Source: Clostridia bacterium
GTDB lineage: Bacteria; Bacillota; Clostridia; UBA1381
Assembly (NCBI GenBank): GCA_036307445.1
Contig: JAXJXP010000029.1
Span: 580-64,579, forward strand
Direction: 5' to 3'
DNA: 64,000 nt
Part shown: positions 1,696 through 54,654 of the stretch, piece by piece
Layout of the letters: every line of letters starts with the position of its first letter
Numbering within the stretch: the stretch's first letter is position 1
Notes under the pieces: model-generated
Told to the model about the DNA's origin: nothing
Database searches by the model: none
What the model saw: the letters and a program-made list of their open reading frames with translations, nothing else
Program-made: the position numbers and the translations under genes

Positions 1696-4600
1696 CTATT
1701 TACCTTCGTTCTTCAATGATAAAATAGTCTGTAACACAAATTTAACATTGTTAAGCTTACTCTTTGGCTCCTTTTCAAAGTAAGTTATCTGAGGTATTTG
1801 CGATGTTCCTACCTTAATATTCATAGGGAACTTACCGATAAGTGCTATTACCGTTTCTGGTTCAAGCGCTCCCTCGTTAAAGGTGAATACAAAACGTCCT
1901 CCCTGTTTCTCGCTTATTTCAACTACACCGCACTCAGATGCTACAGTCTTGATTTCAGAAATCTTTATAAGATTCATTACCGCTTTTGGCACATCACCAA
2001 ATCTGTCAATAATTTCATCAATTACTTCTGCAGAATCTTCATCAGAAGCAATTGCAGCAATTTGTTTGTAGGCGTCAATACGTTGATTCTGATTTTTAAT
2101 ATACTTTTCAGGAATATATGCATCAACAGAAATATCAATCAATACCTCAGCATCTCCTTGTATCTTTTCGCCCTTTACCTCTCTGACACTTTCAGAAAGA
2201 AGTCTGCAGTACATATCATAGCCAACAGAATCCATATGCCCGTGTTGCTGTGCTCCCAAAATATTGCCTGCACCTCGTATTTCCAAATCACGCATTGCTA
2301 TTTTGAAGCCTGAGCCAAACTCAATAAACTCTCTTATAGCACTAAGACGCTTTTGTGCCGTTTCTGAAAGCACCTTATCACGCTTATAGGTCATATACGC
2401 ATATGCACTTCTTGTCGAGCGACCAACTCTTCCTCTAAGCTGATAAAGCTGCGATAATCCCATTCTGTCTGCGTTTTCTATGATAATTGTGTTAGCGTTG
2501 GGGATATCAAGTCCTGTTTCGATAATGGTAGTACATACAAGAATATCGGTATCACCGTTTACCATACTGTACATAATATCCTCAAGCTCATCTTCCTTCA
2601 TTCTTCCGTGAGCCACTGCAACTCTTGCATCCGGAATAAGCTTTCTGATATTCTCAGCGACAGTAAATATACCTTGTATTCTGTTATATAAATAGAACAC
2701 CTGTCCTCCTCTTGCAATCTCCTTTTTCATTGCATCAGCAAGAACAATCGGATTATGCTCCATTACATACGTTTCAACTGGATATCTGTTTTCAGGCGGC
2801 GTCTCAAGAAGGCTCATATCACGAACCGACAGCATTGCCATATGCAAAGTTCTTGGTATCGGTGTGGCTGTCATAGAAAGAACATCAATGTTCTTCTTAA
2901 GTTCCTTAATCCGTTCCTTATCCGCAACACCAAACCTCTGTTCTTCATCTATAATCAGCAGTCCTGCGTCTTTAAATTCAATATCTTTCTGCAATAATCT
3001 GTGTGTGCCGATAATAATATCTATCTCACCTGTTTTAACCTTTTTTATAATATTCTTCTGTTCCTTTTCTGTGCGGAAACGTGATAACATTTCTATTGTG
3101 ATAGGAAAATCAGCCATTCTTTTTCTGAAGGTTTCAAAATGCTGCATCGCCAGAATAGTTGTAGGACAAAGGTATATTACCTGTTTCGAATCGGTTGCAG
3201 CCTTAAATGCCGCACGAAGCGCTATCTCTGTTTTTCCGTATCCGACATCACCGCAAAGCAGTCTGTCCATCGGTCTGTCATTTTCCATATCAGCCTTAAC
3301 TTCTTCAATTGATCTTAATTGGTCAGGAGTTTCAGAAAAGGCAAATGTATCCTCAAAATCTCTCTGCCACGGAGTATCTCCGGAAAATGCAAAGCCTTTT
3401 GTATGTTCTCTTTCCGCATACAATTCAACAAGCTGCTTCGCCATATCTGCAGTTGCAGTTTTAACTCTTTGTTTTGCCTTGTTCCATTCACTGCCGCCAA
3501 GCTTATTAAGCTTAATCGTCTTTTCGCCACTGCCGACATATTTATAAAGCATATCCATCTGGTCAACTGGTACGTATAAAGTATCAGTACCATGATATTT
3601 AATATGAAAATAGTCCTTTGTTACACCGCCAACCTCCATCTTCTTAATGCCACAGTATTCACCGATACCATGCGCTCGATGGACAACATAATCTCCTACA
3701 TTTATATCGGTATATGCTTTGATTCTTCTTGCTTTATCAATCTTTTTGGCTCTTCTGCTTTTTTCTGCGGCAAAAATATCTTGTTCAGAAATAAGAACAA
3801 AAGAAAGCTCAGGATATTCAAACCCCTTCTTGCTATTGCCTTTAATAACAGTTATTTCGCCTTTATTAAATTCAGCACCGTCTTCGAGGTATGTTGCCAA
3901 AAAGCCCTTTTCATTAAGCGTACCGGCAAGATTTTTTCCCTTCGAACCGCTTGCAGTAAGTATTACAACAGTAGCACCTGCTTTTTTCCACCCGGTCAAA
4001 TCATCATAAAGATACTCTATTTTACCATGCAGGGAAACAGTACTCTTGGTTACAAAATCAACTATCAACGTATATTTGAAATCAAGTGATGTGTGAGCCA
4101 GCAAATTTAGTGATATTCTATTATGCGATGATAGCATTTCACAAAAAGCTCTGTATGCAATCCACGGAAGTGGCGTTTTGGGTATCATAACCTTACCCAA
4201 AAGTTCAGATATTCTTTCCCCTTCTTCCCATTCAAGCGTCTTAGCTCTTTCATTAAGACGTTTAGGCTCAGCAACAAATACAAGAGTGTCCTTTTCAAGA
4301 TGATCACATATGCACGGTATATTTTCAAAGAGGTATCCAATATATTTGTCAATAGCAGGAAATCTTTCATCCTCAGAATGCAATTCTTGTTCGTGTTCCA
4401 ATACTTGTAATAATTCTTCTGATGTGCTTTTTCTTCTTATAGCTTTATCAATATAATCTGAAAGCTTATTATTCTCTTCTTCTGTAAGGCACAGCTCAGA
4501 TACCGGTATTATACGACATTTGTCTACGTTTAGTTTAGACCTCTGGTCAACAGGATCAAAAAAACGAACAGAGTCAATCTCGTTATCAAAGAACTCAATT

Positions 4601-5157
4601 CTGACAGGCTCTTCATTATTAGGCGAAAAGATATCCAGAATACCTCCACGAACAGAAAACTGCCCCTGAACCTCAGTCATATCACATCTTTTATATCCCA
4701 TTGTAACAAGATTTTTTGTTAGTGACTCAATATCATAGCACTCGCCAACAGACACATCAAAGGCAAGCTTATCGAATCTATCCTTAGAAATAGTATAAGA
4801 TAGACAAGCAGCAACTGATGCTACAACAACTGCACCGTCTTTTATACGATCAAGTGCAAAAAGCCTTTGCAGTTCCCTTTCGTGATTTCTCACATCAATG
4901 TTATGAAATACGTATTCTTTATCAGGAAACAGTACCGCTTTATCTGTATAAAGCTCAAGCTCTCTTACCATTGCACGTGCTTCATTTTCGCTGTACACGA
5001 CAACAAGCGCACCTCTCTTATGAGACAGTGCGCCAATGAGTTGAACCTGTGCGGCCTCGGAGATACCGGAAACTGACACAGCTCCATTAGTCTTTGAAAT
5101 TTCCTTTTTTAACTGTTCATACGGCTTATAACCGTCTAAAATGTTAAGCAAATTCAT
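1696..5157 (-). CDS. mfd: Transcription-repair coupling factor Mfd
   Basis: 1153 aa. Contains a CarD-like RNAP-interacting region (VGDYVVHRAHGIGEY), SF2 helicase motifs (GDVGYGKTE, DEEQRFG, SMTATPIPRTL, QLRGRVGRS) and a TRCF C-terminal domain. Confidence 0.96.
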   Translation of the reverse strand: MNLLNILDGYKPYEQLKKEISKTNGAVSVSGISEAAQVQLIGALSHKRGALVVVYSENEARAMVRELELYTDKAVLFPDKEYVFHNIDVRNHERELQRLFALDRIKDGAVVVASVAACLSYTISKDRFDKLAFDVSVGECYDIESLTKNLVTMGYKRCDMTEVQGQFSVRGGILDIFSPNNEEPVRIEFFDNEIDSVRFFDPVDQRSKLNVDKCRIIPVSELCLTEEENNKLSDYIDKAIRRKSTSEELLQVLEHEQELHSEDERFPAIDKYIGYLFENIPCICDHLEKDTLVFVAEPKRLNERAKTLEWEEGERISELLGKVMIPKTPLPWIAYRAFCEMLSSHNRISLNLLAHTSLDFKYTLIVDFVTKSTVSLHGKIEYLYDDLTGWKKAGATVVILTASGSKGKNLAGTLNEKGFLATYLEDGAEFNKGEITVIKGNSKKGFEYPELSFVLISEQDIFAAEKSRRAKKIDKARRIKAYTDINVGDYVVHRAHGIGEYCGIKKMEVGGVTKDYFHIKYHGTDTLYVPVDQMDMLYKYVGSGEKTIKLNKLGGSEWNKAKQRVKTATADMAKQLVELYAEREHTKGFAFSGDTPWQRDFEDTFAFSETPDQLRSIEEVKADMENDRPMDRLLCGDVGYGKTEIALRAAFKAATDSKQVIYLCPTTILAMQHFETFRKRMADFPITIEMLSRFRTEKEQKNIIKKVKTGEIDIIIGTHRLLQKDIEFKDAGLLIIDEEQRFGVADKERIKELKKNIDVLSMTATPIPRTLHMAMLSVRDMSLLETPPENRYPVETYVMEHNPIVLADAMKKEIARGGQVFYLYNRIQGIFTVAENIRKLIPDARVAVAHGRMKEDELEDIMYSMVNGDTDILVCTTIIETGLDIPNANTIIIENADRMGLSQLYQLRGRVGRSTRSAYAYMTYKRDKVLSETAQKRLSAIREFIEFGSGFKIAMRDLEIRGAGNILGAQQHGHMDSVGYDMYCRLLSESVREVKGEKIQGDAEVLIDISVDAYIPEKYIKNQNQRIDAYKQIAAIASDEDSAEVIDEIIDRFGDVPKAVMNLIKISEIKTVASECGVVEISEKQGGRFVFTFNEGALEPETVIALIGKFPMNIKVGTSQIPQITYFEKEPKSKLNNVKFVLQTILSLKNEGK

Positions 5158-42896: not shown

Positions 42897-43898
42897 TTAT
42901 TTATTAAGTGCTTCTTCAACTGCAACCGCAATAGCAACAGTCATACCAACCATCGGGTTGTTACCTGCGCCGATAAGTCCCATCATTTCAACGTGAGCGG
43001 GAACTGATGAAGAACCTGCAAACTGTGCGTCTGAGTGCATTCTTCCCATTGTATCTGTCATACCGTAAGAAGCCGGACCTGCAGCCATATTATCGGGGTG
43101 AAGTGTACGTCCTGTACCGCCGCCTGATGCAACTGAGAAGTACTTCTTACCCTGCTCGATACATTCCTTCTTGTATGTACCTGCAACAGGATGCTGGAAA
43201 CGTGTCGGGTTTGTTGAGTTACCTGTGATAGAAACGTCAACGCCCTCAAGATGCATTATTGCAACACCCTCACGAACATCGTCAGCACCGTAGCAACGAA
43301 CCTTTGCTCTCTCACCATTTGAGTATGCTGTTTCCTTAACTACTGAAACCTTACCTGTTGAATAGTCAAACTGTGTCTGAACATAGGTAAAGCCGTTAAT
43401 TCTTGAGATAATCTGAGCAGCATCCTTACCAAGACCGTTAAGAATAACTCTCAAATCTTCTTTTCTTGCTTTGTTAGCTGAACGTGCAAGACCGATAGCG
43501 CCCTCTGCAGCAGCAAATGACTCGTGACCTGCAAGGAATGCAAAGCACTTTGTTTCTTCTCTTAGAAGCATTGCGCCGAGGTTACCGTGGCCGATACCAA
43601 CCTTTCTGTCGTCAGCAACCGAGCCGGGGATACAGAAGGACTGAAGTCCCAAACCAATTTTCTCAGCAGCGTCAGCAGCCTTCTTGCAATTTTCCTTAAT
43701 AGCAATAGCTGCACCTACAGTGTAAGCCCAGCAAGCATTCTCGAAACAAATCGGCTGAATGCTCTTTACGATACCATAAGCATCTACTCCTGCGTCATCG
43801 CAGATTTTCTTAGCCTCTTCAATGGAGGAAATGCCGTGTTTAGCAAGCTCCGCATTGATTTGGTCTATTCTTCTTTCATAACTTTCAAACAGTGCCAT
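42897..43898 (-). CDS. GGGtGRT family protein (conserved, function unknown)
   Basis: 333 aa containing the family-defining SGGGTGRT motif (FSVASGGGTGRTLHPDN). Confidence 0.8.
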   Translation of the reverse strand: MALFESYERRIDQINAELAKHGISSIEEAKKICDDAGVDAYGIVKSIQPICFENACWAYTVGAAIAIKENCKKAADAAEKIGLGLQSFCIPGSVADDRKVGIGHGNLGAMLLREETKCFAFLAGHESFAAAEGAIGLARSANKARKEDLRVILNGLGKDAAQIISRINGFTYVQTQFDYSTGKVSVVKETAYSNGERAKVRCYGADDVREGVAIMHLEGVDVSITGNSTNPTRFQHPVAGTYKKECIEQGKKYFSVASGGGTGRTLHPDNMAAGPASYGMTDTMGRMHSDAQFAGSSSVPAHVEMMGLIGAGNNPMVGMTVAIAVAVEEALNK

Positions 43899-43912
43899 TA
43901 TGCGTTACCTCC

Positions 43913-44605
43913 TTATTCATGTCTGGGGTCTAAGAGCTTTGCAGCATCGTCAACCCTACCGTACTGACCGCTTGCCTTCTCGAGTGCCTCGTTTGCGTCC
44001 ATACCCTTAGCAATCATTTCCATCATCTTGCCGAGGTGAACAAACTTGTAGCCGATAATCTCGTCATTATCGTCAACAGCAATCTTTGTAATATAACCTT
44101 CAGCAAGCTCAAGGTAACGGGGACCCTTTTCAAGTGTTGCATATGTAGTACCAACCTGTGAACGAAGTCCTTTGCCAAGGTCTTCAAGTCCTGCACCGAT
44201 GGGCAGACCGTCCTCTGAGAATGCAGTCTGTGTACGACCGTAAACAATCTGAAGGAACAATTCTCTCATAGCTGTGTTGATAGCATCACATACAAGGTCT
44301 GTATTAAGTGCCTCTAAAAGTGTCTTTCCAATAAGAATTTCTGCAGCCATTGCAGCTGAGTGTGTCATACCTGAACATCCAACAGTCTCAACAAGAGCCT
44401 CCTGAATAACACCCTCTTTAACATTAAGTGTAAGCTTACATGTACCCTGCTGCGGTGCACACCAGCCTATACCGTGTGTAAGACCGGATATATCGCTGAT
44501 AACCTTTGCTTGTGTCCATCTTCCCTCCTGAGGGATGGGAGCCGGACCGTGATATGCGCCCTTTTTAAGCGGACACATTGCTTCGACTTCGCTTGAATAT
44601 TTCAT
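43913..44605 (-). CDS. NifU/IscU-like N-terminal-domain protein (putative Fe-S scaffold-like)
   Basis: IscU-like pattern: GWCAPQQGTCKLTLNVKEGVIQEALVETVGCSGMTHSAAMAAEILIGKTLLEA. It forms an operon with the GGGtGRT gene (14-nt gap). Confidence 0.6.
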   Translation of the reverse strand: MKYSSEVEAMCPLKKGAYHGPAPIPQEGRWTQAKVISDISGLTHGIGWCAPQQGTCKLTLNVKEGVIQEALVETVGCSGMTHSAAMAAEILIGKTLLEALNTDLVCDAINTAMRELFLQIVYGRTQTAFSEDGLPIGAGLEDLGKGLRSQVGTTYATLEKGPRYLELAEGYITKIAVDDNDEIIGYKFVHLGKMMEMIAKGMDANEALEKASGQYGRVDDAAKLLDPRHE

Positions 44606-44836: not shown

Positions 44837-44847
44837 AAAATCATAAA

Positions 44848-44862
44848 TGATAATGATTATCA
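44848..44862. promoter_or_regulatory. Perfect 7-1-7 Fur box TGATAATGATTATCA
   Basis: Exact match to the B. subtilis-type Fur box consensus TGATAATnATTATCA. It lies 12 nt downstream of the -10, overlapping the expected transcription start. Confidence 0.75.
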
Positions 44863-44888
44863 TTTACGAATGCAAGGGAGGTGATGTG

Positions 44889-45278
44889 ATGAATAATCAC
44901 TCACGGCACTCCAGGCAAAGAGAGGCGATTCTCGCTCTTCTGCAGTCAACGAAGCTGCATCCGACGGCCGACTGGCTATTCTCAGAGCTAAAAAAAGATT
45001 TTCCCAACATAGGTCTGGCGACAATCTATAGGAATTTGAAGCTTTTTGAGGAACAGGGATTAGTTGTCAGAATAGATGTCGGCGACGGCTTCGACCACTA
45101 TGACGCAGATACCAGCGACCATTACCATTTCTTCTGCGACTCTTGCAGAAAGGTTATCGACCTTGATATGCCGCCGTTGCAATTTGACGAGGTAATCCCT
45201 GATGGGTTCTCTTCCGAGCATCATCAGTTGGTTTTCTTCGGCAAATGCAAAAATTGTAAACCAGAGCTATGCTCATAA
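44889..45278 (+). CDS. Fur family transcriptional regulator (Fur/PerR type)
   Basis: HPTADWL, HYHFFCDSCRKVIDL and a C-terminal CKNC. Start set at MNNHSRHSRQ, after GGGAGGTG. Confidence 0.85.
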   Translation: MNNHSRHSRQREAILALLQSTKLHPTADWLFSELKKDFPNIGLATIYRNLKLFEEQGLVVRIDVGDGFDHYDADTSDHYHFFCDSCRKVIDLDMPPLQFDEVIPDGFSSEHHQLVFFGKCKNCKPELCS

Positions 45279-45307
45279 AAAAATATTTAATTTTGGAGGA
45301 AAAGATT

Positions 45308-45892
45308 ATGAAAAAGTTTGTATGTCCTGTTTGCGGTTATGTTCACGAGGGTGATTCTGCACCCGAGAAATGTCCACTTTGCGGTGTTCCCGGTGCTAAG
45401 TTCACTGTTATGGAAGAGGGCGCTGCTCTAGCTGCCCAGCACGAGTACGGAGTTTACGGCAAGACTGTAAAGAACAACCCCGATATCAGCGATGAAGATA
45501 AGAAGTTTATATTTGACCAGCTTATGGCTAACTTCAATGGCGAGTGTGCAGAGGTAGGTATGTATCTCTGTATGGCAAGAATTGCTCACAGAGAGGGCTA
45601 TCCGGAAATCGGTCTTTACTGGGAAAAGGCAGCCTACGAAGAAGCAGAACACGCAGCTAAGTTTGCAGAGCTTTTAGGTGAGGATTTAGAGCCGAATATG
45701 AAGGCTACAACAAAGGATAATCTCAGATGGAGAGTTGACTGCGAATATGGTGCTACAAAGGGTAAGTTTGACCTCGCTGTTTGCGCTAAGAAAAACGGCT
45801 TGGATGCAATCCACGATACAGTTCACGAAATGGCAAGAGACGAAGCTCGTCACGGCAAAGGCTTAGAGGGACTTTTGAAGAGATATTTCTAA
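45308..45892 (+). CDS. rbr: Reverse rubrerythrin (N-terminal rubredoxin-like domain, C-terminal diiron ferritin-like domain)
   Basis: CPVCGYVHEG...CPLCG sits at the N-terminus, followed by ExxH diiron motifs (EEAEHAAKF, DEARHGKGL). Confidence 0.88.
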   Translation: MKKFVCPVCGYVHEGDSAPEKCPLCGVPGAKFTVMEEGAALAAQHEYGVYGKTVKNNPDISDEDKKFIFDQLMANFNGECAEVGMYLCMARIAHREGYPEIGLYWEKAAYEEAEHAAKFAELLGEDLEPNMKATTKDNLRWRVDCEYGATKGKFDLAVCAKKNGLDAIHDTVHEMARDEARHGKGLEGLLKRYF

Positions 45893-45948
45893 TTAAATAT
45901 ATTTGAGGCGGTTTATCAAAACCGCCTCAATCTAAATGAGGTGATTTT

Positions 45949-46461
45949 ATGTTAGATAAAAAGGTAGCAAAACTAATTAACGAACAAGTCAACAAAGAGC
46001 TATATTCTGCTTATTTATATCTTGATTTCTCGATTTTCTACGAGGCTCAAGGACTTGATGGTTTCTCAAACTGGTATATGATTCAGGCTCAAGAAGAAAG
46101 AGACCATGCAATGCTGTTTCTCAAATATCTGCAGAATAACGGCGAAAGTGTAACTTTAGATACCGTTGCAAAGCCTGATAAAGAATTGAAAATCCTTATG
46201 GATCCATTAAAATTCGGTTTTGAACACGAGCAGTATGTAACCAGCCTTATAAACGATATTTACGCTGCAGCATATGACGTTAAGGATTTCAGAACAATGC
46301 AGTTTTTGGACTGGTTCGTAAAAGAGCAGCTTGAAGAGGAAAAGAACGCAGATGATATGATTAAAAAGATGGAGCTTTTCGGCAACGATTCAAAAGGATT
46401 ATATTCTCTCGACAGCGAATATGCCGCAAGAATGTATACTCCACCTTCATTAGTGTTATAA
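45949..46461 (+). CDS. ftnA: Non-haem ferritin
   Basis: Ferroxidase residues in LINEQVNKELYSAYLYL and QAQEERDHAM. 170 aa. Confidence 0.9.
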   Translation: MLDKKVAKLINEQVNKELYSAYLYLDFSIFYEAQGLDGFSNWYMIQAQEERDHAMLFLKYLQNNGESVTLDTVAKPDKELKILMDPLKFGFEHEQYVTSLINDIYAAAYDVKDFRTMQFLDWFVKEQLEEEKNADDMIKKMELFGNDSKGLYSLDSEYAARMYTPPSLVL

Positions 46462-46485
46462 TTATATAAAAGGAGATGTTTATAT

Positions 46486-46641
46486 ATGAAAAAATATGTA
46501 TGTCCGTGCGGATATGTTTATGACCCCGAAAAGGGCGAGCCGGAAAACGGTATCGCAGCAGGTACTGCTTGGGAAGACGTCCCTGAAGGTTATGTTTGTC
46601 CCGTATGCGGTCTTGGCAAAGATGCCTTTGAAGAGGAATAA
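46486..46641 (+). CDS. Rubredoxin (51 aa; below the ORF-track size cutoff)
   Basis: Hand translation gives [51 protein letters not shown], with both CxxCG knuckles. AAGGAG lies 8-9 nt upstream. Confidence 0.9.
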
Positions 46642-46682: not shown

Positions 46683-48382
46683 TATAATCCAAGTTGTTTC
46701 TTTACATCTGCAAGAACATCATCAATCATCTTATCTGCGTATTCATAACTGTCAGCAGAAGTGCCAAGATAAATTTTGATTTTCGGCTCTGTACCTGACG
46801 GTCTTACAATGAAATATGTCTTTCCGTCAGATAAGCGATAGCTTAATACGTCTGATTTAGGAAGTCCTGTGTCATCGTTCTGGTAATCTGTAACAGAGGT
46901 TACATCCATACCAAAAGCAGAAGTAATCGGAGTTTTGCGGAGATTTGCAAGAAGCTCTGCCATCTTTTCCATTCCGTCCTTACCCGGCATCGTTATAGAA
47001 ATTGTTCTTTCTACAAAATAGCCGTACTTCTTATATATATTCTGCAATGCTTCATACGGAGACATACCCTTGGTTTTATAATATGCTGCCATTTCGGCAA
47101 TAAGCATAGTTGCAACTACACCGTCTTTATCCCTTGTGTGTGTTCCGACAAGATAGCCGTAGCTTTCCTCAAAGCCGATAAGGTATGTGTGTGAGCCTGT
47201 TTCTTCAAAGGCTGTCATCTTTTCACCAATATACTTGAAGCCTGTCAAAACATTCATTATTTCGGTGTTATAAGCCTTTGCAATAGCAGCGGCAAGCTCT
47301 GTTGTAACAATAGTCTTTATAACTACACCATTTGCAGGAAGTGTGCCGTTTTCCTCTTTTGCACGTAGAATATACTCGACAAGAAGTGCTCCAGTCTGGT
47401 TTCCGGTAAGCGTTCTGTATTCACCCTCAGCATCTCGAACAACTATTCCCACTCTGTCGCAATCGGGGTCGGTGCCGATAATCAAATCAACATCATTTTC
47501 CTTTGCAAGCTCAATCGCTCTTGTAAAGCCTTCTTTATTTTCAGGATTAGGCGATTTTACCGTCGGGAAGTTGCCGTCCTCTGTGTCCTGCTCTTCTACA
47601 ACAATAACATTTTTAAATCCAATTCTCTTTAAAACCTCTTTAATCGGCCTTGAGCCTGTTCCGTGGAACGGAGTGTAAACAAGGCGCATTGTGTCAGCAA
47701 CCTGATGAATAGCATCAGGTTTAATCTGCTGTTTCATTACGGTTGTGATAAACTTTTCATCAAGTGCATCGTCTGTATATGTAAGTAGTCCTGACTCAAA
47801 TGCTTCATCAAGTGTTACTATCTTCACTCCGTCAAACACATCACAAGCGGATATTGCATCAATAACAGTCTTAGCTGCCTCAGGCGGAAGCTGTCCGCCA
47901 TCAGGACCGTAAACCTTATATCCGTTATATTCCTTAGGATTATGGCTTGCTGTTATCATTACGCCCGCTGCGCAACCAAGCTCTCTTATACCAAAGGATA
48001 CCTCGGGTACCGAATGTACTTTAGGGAACAAATATGTTCTTATTCCGTTGGCACAAAGCACTCTGGCAGTTTCTTCAGCAAATACTCTTGAAAAGTTTCT
48101 TGTGTCATAACCAATAAGTACGCCTGCTTTTTTAGCCTCTTCACCTTCGACATTGACGTATTGAGCAACTCCCTGACTCGCCTGACGAACGTTATATATG
48201 TTTATTCTGTTAGTACCCATACCGAGTATACCGCGCATACCCGCAGTACCAAACTCAAGCTCACGGTAAAATCTTTCTTCAATCTCTTTTTCATCATCTG
48301 CAATTGCCATAAGCTCAGCTTTTTCCTCAGCGCTTAGCTCTTCCCTGTTTATCCATCTTTCATAATTTTCTTTATAACCCAT
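46682..48382 (-). CDS. pgcA: Phosphoglucomutase / phosphomannomutase (alpha-D-phosphohexomutase family)
   Basis: Active-site TASHNPKEYNGYK, metal loop GTDPDCDRVG, and GFEESYGY. Confidence 0.9.
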   Translation of the reverse strand: MGYKENYERWINREELSAEEKAELMAIADDEKEIEERFYRELEFGTAGMRGILGMGTNRINIYNVRQASQGVAQYVNVEGEEAKKAGVLIGYDTRNFSRVFAEETARVLCANGIRTYLFPKVHSVPEVSFGIRELGCAAGVMITASHNPKEYNGYKVYGPDGGQLPPEAAKTVIDAISACDVFDGVKIVTLDEAFESGLLTYTDDALDEKFITTVMKQQIKPDAIHQVADTMRLVYTPFHGTGSRPIKEVLKRIGFKNVIVVEEQDTEDGNFPTVKSPNPENKEGFTRAIELAKENDVDLIIGTDPDCDRVGIVVRDAEGEYRTLTGNQTGALLVEYILRAKEENGTLPANGVVIKTIVTTELAAAIAKAYNTEIMNVLTGFKYIGEKMTAFEETGSHTYLIGFEESYGYLVGTHTRDKDGVVATMLIAEMAAYYKTKGMSPYEALQNIYKKYGYFVERTISITMPGKDGMEKMAELLANLRKTPITSAFGMDVTSVTDYQNDDTGLPKSDVLSYRLSDGKTYFIVRPSGTEPKIKIYLGTSADSYEYADKMIDDVLADVKKQLGL

Positions 48383-48463
48383 TACTTTTTCCTCCTATTC
48401 ATATATTTAAATATATTATACACCATTTTTTTCCATATTTCAATCGGTTTTTAAATTATATAT

Positions 48464-48501
48464 AAAATAGACGGTACGGGAATGTCCGTACCGTCTATTT
48501 T
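48464..48501. terminator. Terminator closing the pfl operon
   Basis: TAGACGGTACGG-gaatgt-CCGTACCGTCTA (12-bp stem) with A/T-rich flanks. Confidence 0.75.
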
Positions 48502-48736
48502 ATATATTAGCATGAAATGTTCTTGAAATAACATCATCCTGCTGCTCTTTTGTAAGCTTTATAAAGTTCACAGCATAACCCGACACACGAACTGTAAGCT
48601 GCGGATATTTTTCCGGATGTTTCTGTGCATCAAGAAGTGTTTCTCTTGTGAACACATTAACATTCAGATGATGTCCGCCCTGTTTTGCATATCCGTCAAG
48701 CAATGATACAAGATTATCAACCTGCTGAGTTGCCAT
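48500..48736 (-). CDS. grcA: Stand-alone glycyl-radical domain protein (GrcA/YfiD-like), equivalent to the PFL C-terminus
   Basis: [55 protein letters not shown] aligns with the last ~75 residues of PflB, including the RVSGYAV radical-glycine motif. It has its own SD (GAAAGGA) and ATG. Confidence 0.9.
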
Positions 48737-48754
48737 AAAAAAACCATCCTTTCG

Positions 48755-48931
48755 TTATTTATCATCAATATCCTTATGCAATGTCGGCACACTGCACGCA
48801 CCGCCCTCTAACGAGCAAGAGGCGCAGTTTTCTACATTACTGATTTCTCCTGTCTTTACATTGATATGACCGCTGCCCTTTTTTATGCAATTATCAATCA
48901 TATCAACAAGCTTTTCATAATCCTTTTCCAT
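48755..48931 (-). CDS. Small 58-aa four-cysteine hypothetical protein between the PFL core and the glycyl-radical domain
   Basis: Hand translation gives MEKDYEKLVDMIDNCIKKGSGHINVKTGEISNVENCASCSLEGGACSVPTLHKDIDDK. AAGGAAG lies about 7 nt upstream, overlapping the stop region of the PFL core. It is below the track cutoff. Confidence 0.5.
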   Translation of the reverse strand: MEKDYEKLVDMIDNCIKKGSGHINVKTGEISNVENCASCSLEGGACSVPTLHKDIDDK

Positions 48932-48933
48932 AA

Positions 48934-50991
48934 TTATTCTTCCTTAAGCTTGTCAAGGTCAAACTCTCCCGAAAATGTCGTATCATCCTTACCGAGCGCA
49001 CCGGGAATAATTGAGAAAGTATTTGAAATACCGTCCTGTGCATCGTCAAACGGCAGCTTTGCAACTGATGCAAGAGATGCTACTGCACCGTGCGTATCAC
49101 GACCATGCATCGGATTTGCTCCCGGAGCAAGAGGCACGCCTTCCTTTCTGCCGTCAGGAGTGTTACCCGTCTTTTTGCCATATACAACATTTGATGTAAT
49201 AGTAAGTATGGACATTGTAGGTACACCGTCGCGGTAGGTATGATGCTTACGTATTTTATCCATAAAGCGTTCAACTATATCGACAGCAAGCTCGTCAACT
49301 CTATCATCATTATTGCCGTACTTCGGAAAATCTCCTTCAATATCGTAATCAATAACAATGCCGTTTTCATCACGGACACATTTAACCTTTGCATACTTAA
49401 TTGCACTCAAACTGTCAGCAACAACCGACAAGCCTGCAATACCTGTTGCAAAATATCTCTTAACATCACGGTCATGGAGCGCCATCTGAATACGTTCATA
49501 AGCATACTTATCGTGCATATAGTGAATGACATTGAGCGTATTTACATACAAACCTGCAAGCCATTCCATCATAGCATCGTATTTTTCCATAACATCGTCA
49601 AAGTGGAGATAATCACCCTGAACAGCACGGTATTTAGGTCCAACCTGAATTTTTAGTCTTTCATCAACACCGCCGTTGATAGCATACAAGAGACACTTGG
49701 CAAGATTTGCTCTTGCTCCGAAGAACTGCATCTCTTTTCCCACTCTCATAGAAGAAACACAGCAAGCAATTGCATAGTCATCACCATGCGTAACCCTCAT
49801 CAAGTCGTCATTTTCATATTGTATAGATGATGTCTTAATTGACATCTTAGCGCAGTATTCTTTAAACTTTCTCGGTAAATTCACTGACCACAATACAGTC
49901 ATATTGGGTTCTGGTGCTGTGCCAAGATTTTCAAGAGTATGAAGATATCTAAAGGAGTTCTTTGTTACAAGAGGTCTGCCGTCGATACCTACACCTGCTA
50001 TTGACTCTGTTACCCAGGTCGGGTCGCCTGAGAAAAGCTCATTATACTCAGGAGTTCTTGCAAATTTGATAAGACGCAGCTTCATAATAAAGTGGTCGAT
50101 ATACTCCTGAGCCTGCTGTTCGGTAATAATACCATTCTTTAAATCTCGTTCAATGTAAATATCAAGGAAAGTAGATGTTCTTCCCAAGCTCATCGCTGCT
50201 CCGTTTTGCTCTTTAACTGCAGCAAGGTAGCCAAAATAGAGCCACTGAATTGCTTCCTGTGCAGTTTGAGCAGGACGGGAAATATCATAGCCGTAAATCC
50301 TGCCAAGCTCACAAAGCTCGTCCAAAGCTCTGAGCTGCTCTGTAAGCTCCTCACGAAGTTGCATATTCTTCGCTGTCATACGCACAAGCGATGTATCAAG
50401 CTGATGCTTCTTATCCTCTTTAAGTCTGTCAACACCATAAAGAGCAACTCGGCGATAATCGCCAATAATTCTGCCTCTGCCATATGCATCAGGCAGGCCC
50501 GTTATAATTGCTGACTTTCTGGCAAGACGCATTTCAGGTGTATAAACATCAAATACTCCCTGATTATGTGTTTTTCTGTATTTAGTAAAAATTTCTACTA
50601 TTTCAGGATCTACCTCGTAACCGTTTTCCTTGCAAGCATTTTGTGCCATTCTTATTCCGCCAAAAGGTTGCAACGAACGTTTAAAAGGCTTATCTGTCTG
50701 AAAACCAACTATTTTTTCAAGTGATTTATCAAGATACCCTGCTTTGTGAGATGTAATAGTCGAAACAATATCTGTGTCCATATCAAGAACACCGCCAGCT
50801 TCACGTTCCTTCTTTGACAGCTCAGTAACCATTCCCCAAAGCTTTGTGGTAGCTTCGGTGGGCTGAGCAAGAAACTCCTCACCACCATCATACTGTGTAT
50901 AGTTTGTGAGAATAAAATCTCTGACATTTATATCATCACACCATGCACCGGGCACAAAGCCTTGCCATTCGTGTGCCATATCTCTTCTCAT
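48934..50991 (-). CDS. pflB: Pyruvate formate-lyase (formate C-acetyltransferase) catalytic core lacking the C-terminal glycyl-radical domain
   Basis: INVRDFI, the catalytic Cys pair in [29 protein letters not shown], and the C-terminal ...[12 protein letters not shown]. It then runs into a non-homologous 15-aa tail and a stop. Start set at MRRDMAHEW, after GAGGGGG. Confidence 0.9.
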
Positions 50992-51163
50992 ACTTCCTGC
51001 CCCTCTCTGTGTGTTATACATTTACCGATATACTCGGTACATATATAATATCATTACATCTGTTTTTTGTCAATATATTGTGTTAAGATTTATAGCAATT
51101 CGTTTCAAATGTCAAAATATTGTATACTTAATCAATGTAAATTATTCATTTTGACATATAAGA

Positions 51164-51210
51164 CAAAAAAACAGCACAACAAACACTAAAATAAGCGAAT
51201 GTTGTGCTGT
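51164..51210 (-). terminator. Terminator after the ferredoxin gene
   Basis: The minus strand reads ACAGCACAAC ... GTTGTGCTGT followed by TTTTTTT. Confidence 0.75.
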
Positions 51211-51224
51211 AATTCGTTATACGA

Positions 51225-51392
51225 TTACGCCTGAGGAGCACCTACCGGACAAACACCTGCACATGCACCGCAATCGATGCAAGTACCCTCATCAATAACG
51301 TATTTTGCATCTCCTTCGCTGATTGCGCCTACGGGACAAGCACCCGCACATGCACCACAGTTGATGCAATCATCACTGATTTTGTATGCCAT
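51225..51392 (-). CDS. fdx: 2x[4Fe-4S] clostridial-type ferredoxin (55 aa)
   Basis: MAYKISDDCINCGACAGACPVGAI...CIDCGACAGVCPVGA. AAGGAGGTG lies upstream of the ATG at 51392. Confidence 0.92.
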   Translation of the reverse strand: MAYKISDDCINCGACAGACPVGAISEGDAKYVIDEGTCIDCGACAGVCPVGAPQA

Positions 51393-52521: not shown

Positions 52522-52878
52522 TCAACTTCGTGCTTTTGGTTTAAATATAATTGCTGACAGAAGCCCGAGAATAACCGCAGCGCCAAGTCCTGTTCCACAT
52601 GCTTCAAAGCCGCCGCAAAGTACACCCATCAGACCTTTATCCGAAACCGCACGAAATACTCCTTTGCAAAGATTATATCCAAAACCTGTAAGAGGTACAG
52701 TCGCTCCTGCTCCGGCAAAATCAACAATATATTCATAAACTCCGATAAGTTCGAGAAAGACTCCAGCCACAACGTAAGATACAAGTATTCGTGCAGGAGT
52801 AAGCTTTGTTTTGTCAATTAGAATCTGTCCTATTACACATATAAGACCACCCACTATAAAGGCCTTTAAAAAATTCAT
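52522..52878 (-). CDS. spoVAE: Stage V sporulation protein AE
   Basis: 118-aa membrane protein with the typical SpoVAEb sequence (FIVGGLICVIGQILID ... VPLTGFG). Confidence 0.85.
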   Translation of the reverse strand: MNFLKAFIVGGLICVIGQILIDKTKLTPARILVSYVVAGVFLELIGVYEYIVDFAGAGATVPLTGFGYNLCKGVFRAVSDKGLMGVLCGGFEACGTGLGAAVILGLLSAIIFKPKARS

Positions 52879-52879
52879 A

Positions 52880-53890
52880 TTATTTTACTCCTTCTAATAT
52901 TAATGCGTGCGCAACAGATGGAATTGACTCTCCCTGATTTATTGCCTGCGTATTCATAAGAGCGCCGGTTGCCATCAAAATCATCTTTTTAATCTTTCCA
53001 GCTTGCAGCTTTTTAATAGTATCTGCACAAAAAACGCTTGCAATACAACCGCATCCGCTGCCGCCGGCGTGCACGTCCTGCTCTTTAATATTAAATATCA
53101 GACAACCGCAATCTTTGTGTTTTTTCTTTATATCAAAGCCGTTTTCAAGCATTAAATCACAGAGAATATCCGAGCCAACCACCCCCAAATCACCGCTCAG
53201 GATTAAGTCATAGTCATCAGGATTTGTGCCCGTATCCTTGAATAGCGCCGTTAGAGTATCAGCAGCCGCAGGTGCCATTGCAGTACCCATATTTGATGCA
53301 TCCGAAATTCCCATATCAACAATTCTGCCCGGTGTAGCTCCCAAAATCCTAACTCCGTCACCCTCTTCAACAAGACAGGCACCGGATGCTGTAACTGTCC
53401 ACTGAGCTGTCGGAGAACGCTGACCACCATAATTGAGCGGCAGTCGAAACTGTTTTTCAGCCGAACAATAATGACTTGATGTTACAAATATACTCCGCTC
53501 GCTACAGCCCGAGTCAACCGACATTGCGGCCATTATCATTCCCTCGCAGAATGTCGAGCAAGCACCAAACAGGCCAAAAAACGGCACTCTCATATCCTTC
53601 AAGCCATAGTGTGCACCGACACACTGATTAAGCAAATCTCCCGCAAATATACAGTTAATATCGCTTTCGCATATTCCCCTTTTGTCAATCACAAGCTTAA
53701 CACATTCTCTTTGTAGCTTGCTCTCACTTCTCTCCCAGCTCTTTTCTCCCCATGTGTCATCCGTTAATGTAACATCAAACAAATTCCCAAGCGGCCCTTC
53801 TCCTTCCTTTTTACCGGCAATTGACGCATATGACGTAATTGCAGGCCGTCTGTCAAATACAAAGGTTTGTTTTCCCTTTCTGCTGCTCAT
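52880..53890 (-). CDS. spoVAD: Stage V sporulation protein AD
   Basis: 336-aa thiolase-fold-like protein directly upstream of spoVAE. The conserved N-terminal region is SYASIAGKKEGEGPL. Confidence 0.85.
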   Translation of the reverse strand: MSSRKGKQTFVFDRRPAITSYASIAGKKEGEGPLGNLFDVTLTDDTWGEKSWERSESKLQRECVKLVIDKRGICESDINCIFAGDLLNQCVGAHYGLKDMRVPFFGLFGACSTFCEGMIMAAMSVDSGCSERSIFVTSSHYCSAEKQFRLPLNYGGQRSPTAQWTVTASGACLVEEGDGVRILGATPGRIVDMGISDASNMGTAMAPAAADTLTALFKDTGTNPDDYDLILSGDLGVVGSDILCDLMLENGFDIKKKHKDCGCLIFNIKEQDVHAGGSGCGCIASVFCADTIKKLQAGKIKKMILMATGALMNTQAINQGESIPSVAHALILEGVK

Positions 53891-53956
53891 AAAATCACCT
53901 CTTAGGTATTTTCACCACAAGATACATTTTTATACAGAAAAAGGACCGATTTATAA

Positions 53957-54631
53957 TCAGTCCTCTTCTCCATCTATCTTTTTTCTTATATCCATCATTT
54001 TAAGGTCTGTTTCTGATATTGTATCAGCACAGACTTTCAGTTCAGCAAAAATTTCTTTTGCATTTTCCACATTCTTTTTATACTTCATACCATGCTCAAG
54101 ACTTGCCCAAAAATCCATTGCTATTGTTCGGAACTGCACTTCAACACGTATCTGCTGTTTTCTGTCCGAAAAGAAAACAGGGACTTCAATTATCATATGA
54201 TAACTTCTGTATCCGTTAGGCTTAGGATTTTTAATGTAATCCTTTATCTCTATAAGTGTTATGTCATCCTGACGAAGAAGCATATCTGCAACAACATAAA
54301 TATCGTCCAGAAATGCACATATAATTCTTACTCCAGCAACATCATTAAGGTTATTTACAATTGAGTCTATTGTAACATCAAGGCCTCTTCTTCTAAGTTT
54401 TTCCGAAATGCTCTCCGGGCTCTTAATCCTCGTCTTAATCATTTCTATCGGATTTCTGCTGTATCTTACACTCAGGTCATCATTCAAAACCTCGAACTTT
54501 GTCTGCACCTCACGGATTGCACAATTGTACATAGTCATTAGCTGTTCAAACATCTTGACCTTTTTAAACAACTCAATTCCGTCTTTAGGGAGGTTTCGTT
54601 CAGGTATTATCAGATTTAGTTCATTTTCCAT
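53957..54631 (-). CDS. relQ: Small alarmone synthetase (RelQ/RelP-type GTP pyrophosphokinase)
   Basis: RelA_SpoT synthetase domain (RIKSPESISEKLRR, DVAGVRIIC, GYRSYHMII, EVQFRTIAMDFWASLEH). Start set at MENELNL, after AAGGTGGAGGAAC. Confidence 0.88.
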   Translation of the reverse strand: MENELNLIIPERNLPKDGIELFKKVKMFEQLMTMYNCAIREVQTKFEVLNDDLSVRYSRNPIEMIKTRIKSPESISEKLRRRGLDVTIDSIVNNLNDVAGVRIICAFLDDIYVVADMLLRQDDITLIEIKDYIKNPKPNGYRSYHMIIEVPVFFSDRKQQIRVEVQFRTIAMDFWASLEHGMKYKKNVENAKEIFAELKVCADTISETDLKMMDIRKKIDGEED

Positions 54632-54654
54632 TTGTTCCTCCACCTTAAACCATA

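Follow-up and report, generated by a model that had tools for sequence, protein, structure and literature searches.

A probable two-chain pyruvate formate-lyase in a gut-type Clostridia bacterium, with truncated core and free-standing GrcA3 radical module encoded in one operon

Among the fermentation enzymes of gut and rumen anaerobes, pyruvate formate-lyase (PFL) is central and very abundant. How can such an enzyme work if the gene for its catalytic chain stops about 55 residues before the radical glycine? This question is raised by a locus from a gut-type Clostridia bacterium (GTDB UBA1381; assembly GCA_036307445.1, contig JAXJXP010000029.1, forward strand, positions 580-64,579). We analyzed the whole stretch of 64,000 nucleotides (nt), referred to as the window, and all coordinates are positions within it. 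An earlier note on this DNA had proposed that a separate small gene supplies the missing part and that the two polypeptides form a functional PFL rather than the remains of a decayed gene. Selection, relatives and independent assemblies support this proposal, and we consider it highly probable that the locus encodes an obligately split, two-chain PFL expressed from one operon.

The three open reading frames (ORFs) of the locus are arranged head to tail on the minus strand and form one transcription unit from promoter to terminator. They were compared with the Pfam and NCBIfam libraries, the latter with its curated cutoffs. ORF1 matches the Pfam family PFL-like with an E-value of 4e-217 and scores 1123.2 bits against NCBIfam TIGR01255 (cutoff 994.2), even without the last 80 positions of that profile. 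The motif ACCVS, one of the core hallmarks that the earlier note had recognized, occupies residues 409-413 of a 685-residue core in a conserved block aligned to PFL structures. Its Cys-Cys pair (residues 410-411, codons 49759-49764) corresponds to Cys418/Cys419 of the E. coli enzyme. The glycyl-radical loop RVSGYAV is not on the ORF1 polypeptide and is carried by ORF3 instead. The two pieces are exactly complementary: ORF1 covers positions 2-664 and ORF3 positions 665-743 of the 744 positions of TIGR01255, and in the Pfam Gly_radical profile (106 positions) ORF1 accounts only for 2-50 and ORF3 for 52-106. On the E. coli PFL structures, residues 6-679 are matched by the core and residues 683-756 by ORF3; the break thus lies about 55 residues before Gly734, and the small ORF resumes where the homology of the core stops, both as previously claimed. 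Since ORF1 lacks the radical loop, the enzyme matches a PFL only as a two-chain assembly. A model of the core calculated with AlphaFold2 (AF2) without an alignment reached a predicted local distance difference test (pLDDT) score of 33.7, and the Foldseek output obtained from that model was meaningless.

ORF3 (48500-48736, 78 residues) encodes a free-standing glycyl-radical module comprising a helix, strand beta-10, the Gly loop RVSGYAV and a helix at the C-terminal end. The predicted radical glycine, Gly53 (codon 48578-48580), is equivalent to Gly734 of E. coli PflB and to Gly102 of YfiD. The loop residues Arg50, Val51, Ser52, Gly53, Tyr54, Ala55 and Val56 are invariant in 20 family members. 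ORF3 matches the NCBIfam model NF038360 (rad_fix_GrcA3) over positions 2-78 of 78 with 167.3 bits (cutoff 158), and we refer to the gene as grcA3. It falls short of the GrcA/YfiD model TIGR04365 (96.5 bits against a cutoff of 170, covering only positions 65-124 of 126) and of the GrcA2 model NF008341 (107 bits, cutoff 145). The alignment with YfiD spans residues 67-125 of the latter, and six residues of ORF3 precede the homologous part.

The open frame of ORF1 extends from its first ATG at 51021 to 48934 and would give the 695-residue product of the earlier note. This ATG, however, has no ribosome-binding site, whereas the ATG at 50991 is preceded by GAGAGGGG. Because this site and the gene calls in relatives agree, the product is likely the 685-residue core (48934-50991), a PFL without the glycyl-radical loop. 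Homology of the core to PflB ends at ...IPGALGKDD (residue 670), in agreement with the earlier reading and with the profiles. The 15 residues that follow (48937-48981) had been regarded as unrelated sequence, and here the earlier reading does not hold. They form a conserved tail specific to split PFLs: the motif x-F-x-G-[DE]-x-[DE]-x-D-(L-D) is present in every split core that we parsed, and within the clade of the window the proportion of nonsynonymous differences in the tail (pN 0.05-0.27) contrasts with that of synonymous ones (pS 0.43-1.3). The tail and ORF2 are conserved functional candidates, which had been overlooked before.

ORF2 (48755-48931, 58 residues) encodes a conserved small protein and starts 2 nt past the stop codon of ORF1; the ATG of ORF3 follows 18 nt past the stop of ORF2 and is preceded by GAAAGGATGG. 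Shine-Dalgarno-like sequences are found upstream of each of the three ORFs, so that each piece indeed has a ribosome-binding site of its own. A sigma-70-like promoter, predicted from its consensus match only, is located at 51045-51073 of the minus strand (TTGACA, 17 nt, TG-n-TATTAT). It agrees with the consensus at 11 of 12 positions, contains in addition the extended -10 TG, and lies downstream of a terminator-like hairpin belonging to the ferredoxin gene. The operon ends in an intrinsic terminator (48456-48509, minus strand), a perfect hairpin of the 26-bp class followed by a T run. It is therefore bracketed by the ferredoxin gene upstream and this terminator downstream, as stated earlier. 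A second sigma-70-like match on the minus strand (48933-48962; TTGACC, 18 nt, AATAAT) overlaps the stop of ORF1 and the start of ORF2. If real, it could add transcription of grcA3; it may also be a chance match, as the region contains 15 promoter-like matches where 10.2 are expected. In Rfam, the terminator hairpin scores as plant and animal microRNA precursor families (best E-value 0.003, far below the gathering scores), which illustrates that long perfect hairpins yield spurious microRNA matches.

All three ORFs are under strong purifying selection. Pairwise ratios of nonsynonymous to synonymous substitution rates (dN/dS, Nei-Gojobori method) lie at 0.02-0.06 in the core, at 0.07-0.18 in ORF2 and at 0.01-0.12 in GrcA3, and the synonymous sites are close to saturation. 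The exact 78-residue protein with the same neighbours is present on two independent assemblies. Whether the split is conserved, a point raised in the earlier note, can be answered from the relatives. Six homologues of ORF2 (61-100% identity) are each located between a PFL core of 681-686 residues and a radical module of 78 residues, in loci that share the synteny of PSP1, ferredoxin and phosphoglucomutase genes, and the three-cistron layout is retained where ORF2 is only 61-86% identical.

We then considered a wider range of genomes, taking one genome per GTDB species. At least 587 of these contain a close relative of GrcA3, and the layout was determined for the best 80 by similarity to the 78-residue protein. 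A truncated PFL core lies immediately upstream of GrcA3 in 68 of the 80, with free modules of 77-90 residues. In another 11 GrcA3 is an orphan; among these, no PFL core was found within 4.5 kb upstream in six Gastranaerophilales/Melainabacteria loci (L023, L033, L057, L062, L064, L087) and two Lachnospiraceae loci (L076, L078). Such orphans could either serve as true spare parts or pair with a core from another locus. The remaining genome, a metagenome-assembled genome of a Treponemataceae member (L051), contains a single polypeptide (about 2350-4734, an open frame of 794 codons) in which core and GrcA3-like domain are connected by a Cys-containing linker (ALGKDSSIDLASMKNYGNCMSCDTATIM); it is either an ancestral form or a re-fusion. 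The 120 best matches to ORF3 are nearly all 77-81 residues long, with 86-96% identity, and NCBI calls several of them 'autonomous glycyl radical cofactor GrcA3'. Relatives of 77-81 residues with 80-96% identity number in the thousands. Carriers of the architecture include Lachnospiraceae, Oscillospiraceae, Ruminococcus (with the complete genome of R. callidus ATCC 27760), Acutalibacteraceae, Erysipelotrichales, Gastranaerophilales and Veillonella parvula. Across these lineages the proteins are 68-96% (core) and 80-99% (GrcA3) identical to those of the window.

One carrier, L. phytofermentans, links the architecture to physiology. Its operon encodes a core of 715 residues, an ORF2 of 68, a module of 85 and an activase of 251 residues. 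Two other genes of this species are called 'pfl', which we take to belong to microcompartment loci; the organism thus appears, partly on this reading, to have no other true PFL and yet makes formate. Published tables list these two genes (PMC3561251) and give Cphy_2823 as pfl and Cphy2820 as the activase (PMC9765743, PMC3561251), which leaves two locus tags for the small genes. Judged by the locus tags, the operon is likely Cphy_2823-2820. Together with the reported excretion of formate (PMC9765743), the split operon would provide indirect physiological support for a working enzyme.

ORF2 belongs to a family of proteins of 55-90 residues, all named 'hypothetical' and covered by no Pfam or NCBIfam model. 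At least 708 clusters were counted at 90% identity, and an exhaustive HMMER search gave 312 representatives at 50%. Over 114 members, His22 and Cys46 are invariant and Asp13, Gly21, Asn24, Cys39, Ala45, Pro49 and Thr50 nearly so. Columns 4-36 of the family align with the GrcA3 family at an hhalign probability of 95.4% (E-value 1.8e-8), and by this profile comparison the N-terminal part of about 33 columns is homologous to the helix and the strand with which the radical module begins. The remainder consists of a variable acidic loop, the motif D-C-x(3-6)-A-C-x-x-P-[TN]-[LE], whose Cys-x-x-Pro part reads ACSVPTL in the window, and an acidic end. A census of the 68 split loci based on hidden Markov models found this Cys element in 60 of them, as a separate ORF2 in 28 and as a Cys-containing tail fused to the core in 32; none was detected in eight. 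Fused tails end, for example, in ...DIEVDLDCSNGACSTPTLFEGLDD or, in Gastranaerophilales, in ...LDCGCCEGTCK. The ORF2/Cys-motif element is possibly a new component of the system.

Among the closest known systems are E. coli GrcA/YfiD and phage T4 Y06I (both TIGR04365), likewise free-standing RVSGYAV domains and about 70% identical over the structured part. They are activated by the PFL-activating enzyme and can make a PFL whole when its radical loop is missing (PMC8683613, PMC13450708). YfiD has 127 residues including a disordered N-terminus of 60 residues, a region that GrcA3 lacks. Moreover, the gene of YfiD is not linked to pflB, and in facultative anaerobes its product serves a full-length enzyme damaged by O2, whereas GrcA3 shares an operon with a truncated core in strict anaerobes. 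As to NF038360, of which ORF3 is a full-length member, the name suggests an optional repair part; in the window and in 68 of the 80 species, however, the partner PFL is without a radical domain of its own, and the module would therefore be an obligate subunit. The spare-part principle would be turned into an obligate subunit arrangement.

An engineered counterpart exists. Andorfer et al. (2021) showed that E. coli PFL(1-695) combined with YfiD(61-127) is, once activated, as active as the wild type, although binding and activation of this pair are weak (PMC8683613). Residues 696-733 of O2-cleaved PFL, which contain a second copy of the helix and beta-10, serve as a recognition element for YfiD (PMC8683613). 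The engineered tPFL/truncYfiD pair is cut at almost the same place as the natural break (E. coli 679/683). ORF2 represents a natural, free-standing copy of the helix and strand found in E. coli 696-733. The acidic tail, the Cys-x-x-Pro motif and ORF2 are extras of the natural system compared with E. coli, and they may solve the weak binding and activation observed for the engineered pair.

In the Protein Data Bank (PDB), the best matches of the core are entries 38la and 38lb ('Formate acetyltransferase'), with 1139 and 1120 bits compared to 1028 bits for E. coli PFL. Both come from organisms other than that of the window and are split-type cores: 38la (687 residues) ends exactly at the natural break, ...SLGKED, and 38lb (739 residues) carries the Cys-containing tail ALGKSGNVMFGECDMCE. 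Except for E. coli YfiD, no GrcA3-like chain was found in the PDB. An obligately or naturally split PFL is not described in the literature that we searched, which omits most subscription journals, and the name GrcA3 occurs in none of those papers. Two reviews from 2026 and 2025 mention spare parts solely in facultative anaerobes like E. coli, as optional proteins for repair (PMC13450708, PMC12288474). The earlier, cautious suggestion that the arrangement had not been described thus stands for this literature, but not for the databases, where GrcA3 is already a curated NCBIfam family and split-type cores have been deposited. The window is one more member of a large, database-annotated and apparently unpublished architecture.

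The gene anatomy, the homology boundaries, conservation, selection, distribution and family membership are shown by the analysis. We propose the following mechanism, in which we infer the assembly in trans, the activation of Gly53, the benefit of replacement and any role of ORF2. The 685-residue core would form the PFL barrel with the catalytic Cys-Cys pair, without strand beta-10 and the glycine finger. In trans, GrcA3 would contribute strand beta-10 and the glycine finger, together with the C-terminal helix. Gly53 of GrcA3 would lose a hydrogen to a PFL-activating radical-SAM enzyme, and the docked module would hand the radical to Cys411/Cys410 of the core. These residues are predicted to cleave pyruvate with coenzyme A (CoA) to acetyl-CoA and formate. 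Since O2 is known to cleave the chain of a glycyl-radical enzyme at the radical glycine and thereby to destroy the enzyme (PMC13450708), the cell would then have to replace a cartridge of 9 kDa and not an enzyme of 77 kDa. ORF2 would act as an assembly or recognition factor, possibly as a placeholder for the empty beta-10 slot or as a counterpart of the 696-733 remnant that O2-cleaved E. coli PFL requires for binding of YfiD. We favour such a role because ORF2 is a second copy of the same helix and strand.

Other explanations of the locus have to be considered. Taken alone, a PFL ORF ending about 55 residues short of the radical glycine resembles a nonsense or frameshift lesion, so that a normal pflB of about 750 residues could be interrupted by decay or by a sequencing or assembly error, the latter a concern of the earlier note as well. 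Such a lesion would hardly recur identically in independent assemblies or be kept across relatives at saturated synonymous divergence, in a layout common to hundreds of species, with a Shine-Dalgarno sequence and an ATG for each piece and with ORF2 and the tail conserved as protein. The independent assemblies, the conservation and the dN/dS values refute this explanation, which deserves practically no credence. It is also extremely improbable that the cell arrives at a single full-length chain through RNA splicing, programmed frameshifting, readthrough or protein ligation. There is a precedent, as glycyl-radical genes of phages can carry group I introns (T4 nrdD); about 250 nt separate the two homology blocks, and the Treponemataceae relative has its single chain with a Cys-containing linker. 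A scan of 48300-51300 against Rfam with E-values up to 10 gave no intron or ribozyme match, however, but only the terminator hairpin and chance matches, and the intervening DNA codes for a protein under purifying selection. The offset from ORF1 to ORF2 is 5 nt in the window, 4 nt in L005 and 14 nt in L010, and the radical module follows at distances between about 0 and 400 nt among relatives, which makes splicing or a conserved recoding event unlikely; programmed frameshifting was rejected on these grounds. Moreover, GrcA3 always has its own Shine-Dalgarno sequence and ATG, and no inserts of intein size are present.

More serious, although still very unlikely in our view, is the possibility that GrcA3 is a conventional spare part for an intact, O2-damaged PFL encoded elsewhere, the adjacent truncated gene being inactive or otherwise employed. 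The NCBIfam name 'autonomous glycyl radical cofactor' and the orphan modules in 11 of the 80 loci would fit, and a second, intact pflB elsewhere in the genome would escape a scan that covers 64 kb. The truncated core, on the other hand, is under very strong purifying selection and has kept all catalytic blocks, ORF1 and ORF3 tile the PFL profile without overlap, and none of the 68 cores directly upstream of GrcA3 is full length. L. phytofermentans, apparently without another true PFL, makes formate nevertheless. The obligately split enzyme thus remains our preferred interpretation. Besides a potential second pflB, several points weigh against it. No split PFL has been the subject of an experiment in the literature searched. 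Binding and activation of YfiD by E. coli tPFL are poor in vitro (PMC8683613), so assembly in trans is not automatically efficient. Finally, no radical-SAM ORF with a CX3CX2C motif was found anywhere in the 64-kb window, which extends the earlier observation that no activase gene adjoins the operon, and none lies beside the operon in the closest relatives either. A radical-SAM activase adjoins the operon in many related loci and is encoded directly downstream in those of Lachnotalea, Fimimorpha, Ruminococcaceae and L. phytofermentans, whereas the clade of the window has a phosphoglucomutase gene in that position. The activase must therefore be encoded elsewhere, and we assume that it is present in this genome.

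For ORF2 the main alternative is a metal or redox role of its conserved Cys and His residues, as a sensing regulatory subunit instead of a placeholder. Small Cys-containing proteins encoded beside the catalytic subunit are known from benzylsuccinate synthase (BSS beta and gamma) and 4-hydroxyphenylacetate decarboxylase (HPAD gamma). These subunits bind 4Fe-4S clusters through four or more Cys residues, carry no radical glycine and tune the mobility of the radical domain. In addition to the invariant Cys46 and His22 and the nearly invariant Cys39, the C-x2-4-C or CGCCEGTC clusters of fused tails, the sequence FGECDMCE in PDB entry 38lb and the position of the operon next to ferredoxin and oxidative-stress genes would be consistent with this alternative. 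Four or more conserved Cys ligands are not present in ORF2, however; its two conserved Cys residues per chain, with one conserved His, are too few for a single-chain 4Fe-4S site. Some split loci have one Cys or none, and searches of Pfam, NCBIfam and PDB sequences gave no match of ORF2 to any metal-binding family. We consider a sensing subunit unlikely. The same searches revealed no similarity of ORF2 to the small subunits of BSS and HPAD or to the ribonucleotide reductase of phage Aeh1, which works as two polypeptides after its gene was split by a homing endonuclease gene.

The assembly or recognition role that we favour for ORF2 also faces objections. It is argued by analogy from sequence. 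The eight split loci without a detectable Cys element are difficult to reconcile with it, and fused-tail cores do not contain the duplicated helix and strand, so the duplication is not essential. The ORF2 profile gave no meaningful match to PDB sequences (the Nup62 coiled coil with an E-value of 0.1 is noise). An AF2 model from the alignment of 114 sequences is of low confidence (pLDDT 63) and predicts only an N-terminal helix (residues 2-18), an outcome that would also be expected of a peptide that folds on its partner. A more far-reaching idea is a three-component machine, in which the acidic tail and the Cys-x-x-Pro element (here ORF2) are an unrecognised subunit gating the loading, activation or exchange of GrcA3. 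ORF2 might then plug the empty beta-10/glycine-finger site or sense redox state or metal. We regard this as possible, though rather doubtful.

The ferredoxin gene (51225-51392, minus strand, 55 residues) immediately upstream of the operon encodes a protein with two 4Fe-4S clusters (Pfam Fer4 families). The gene order PSP1, ferredoxin and PFL is common to the window and three relatives (L003, L004, L007). Because this neighbourhood is conserved, the ferredoxin is a possible electron donor for the activase.

Further genes in the vicinity were noted. An oxidative-stress cluster on the plus strand (44847-46641) encodes a Fur-family regulator, a rubrerythrin with a rubredoxin-like domain, a ferritin and a rubredoxin; between this cluster and the oxygen-sensitive PFL operon lies nothing but the phosphoglucomutase gene. 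In L005, rubrerythrin and FUR genes are also found a few kb downstream of the split PFL. On the minus strand, 42897-44605 contains a GGGtGRT-family protein (333 residues, E-value 1e-194) beside an ORF of 230 residues without a Pfam match; this family, too, occurs near the split PFL of L005. ORFs at 52522-54643 (minus strand) resemble SpoVAC and SpoVAD by eye and are followed by a small alarmone synthetase with a RelA/SpoT domain (Pfam). A spore-forming Clostridia host would fit the SpoVA genes, if that reading holds.

In annotation pipelines and metabolic models, the truncated gene may be handled as partial and the small one as accessory. The ORF2 family, with hundreds of clusters and no annotation, offers a fresh target. 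If the obligate split is real, the activase can act on a free substrate of 9 kDa, and the extraction of the buried radical domain from the barrel becomes an experimentally separable question. Nature would already have solved the weak binding seen between tPFL and YfiD, which would provide parts for replaceable-radical versions of other glycyl-radical enzymes. Should the three-component machine also exist, gut anaerobes would possess a regulated and cheap repair cycle for their most abundant oxygen-sensitive enzyme. For the organism, damage by O2 would cost a peptide of 78 residues and not the whole enzyme, which bears on how strict anaerobes survive transient oxygen.

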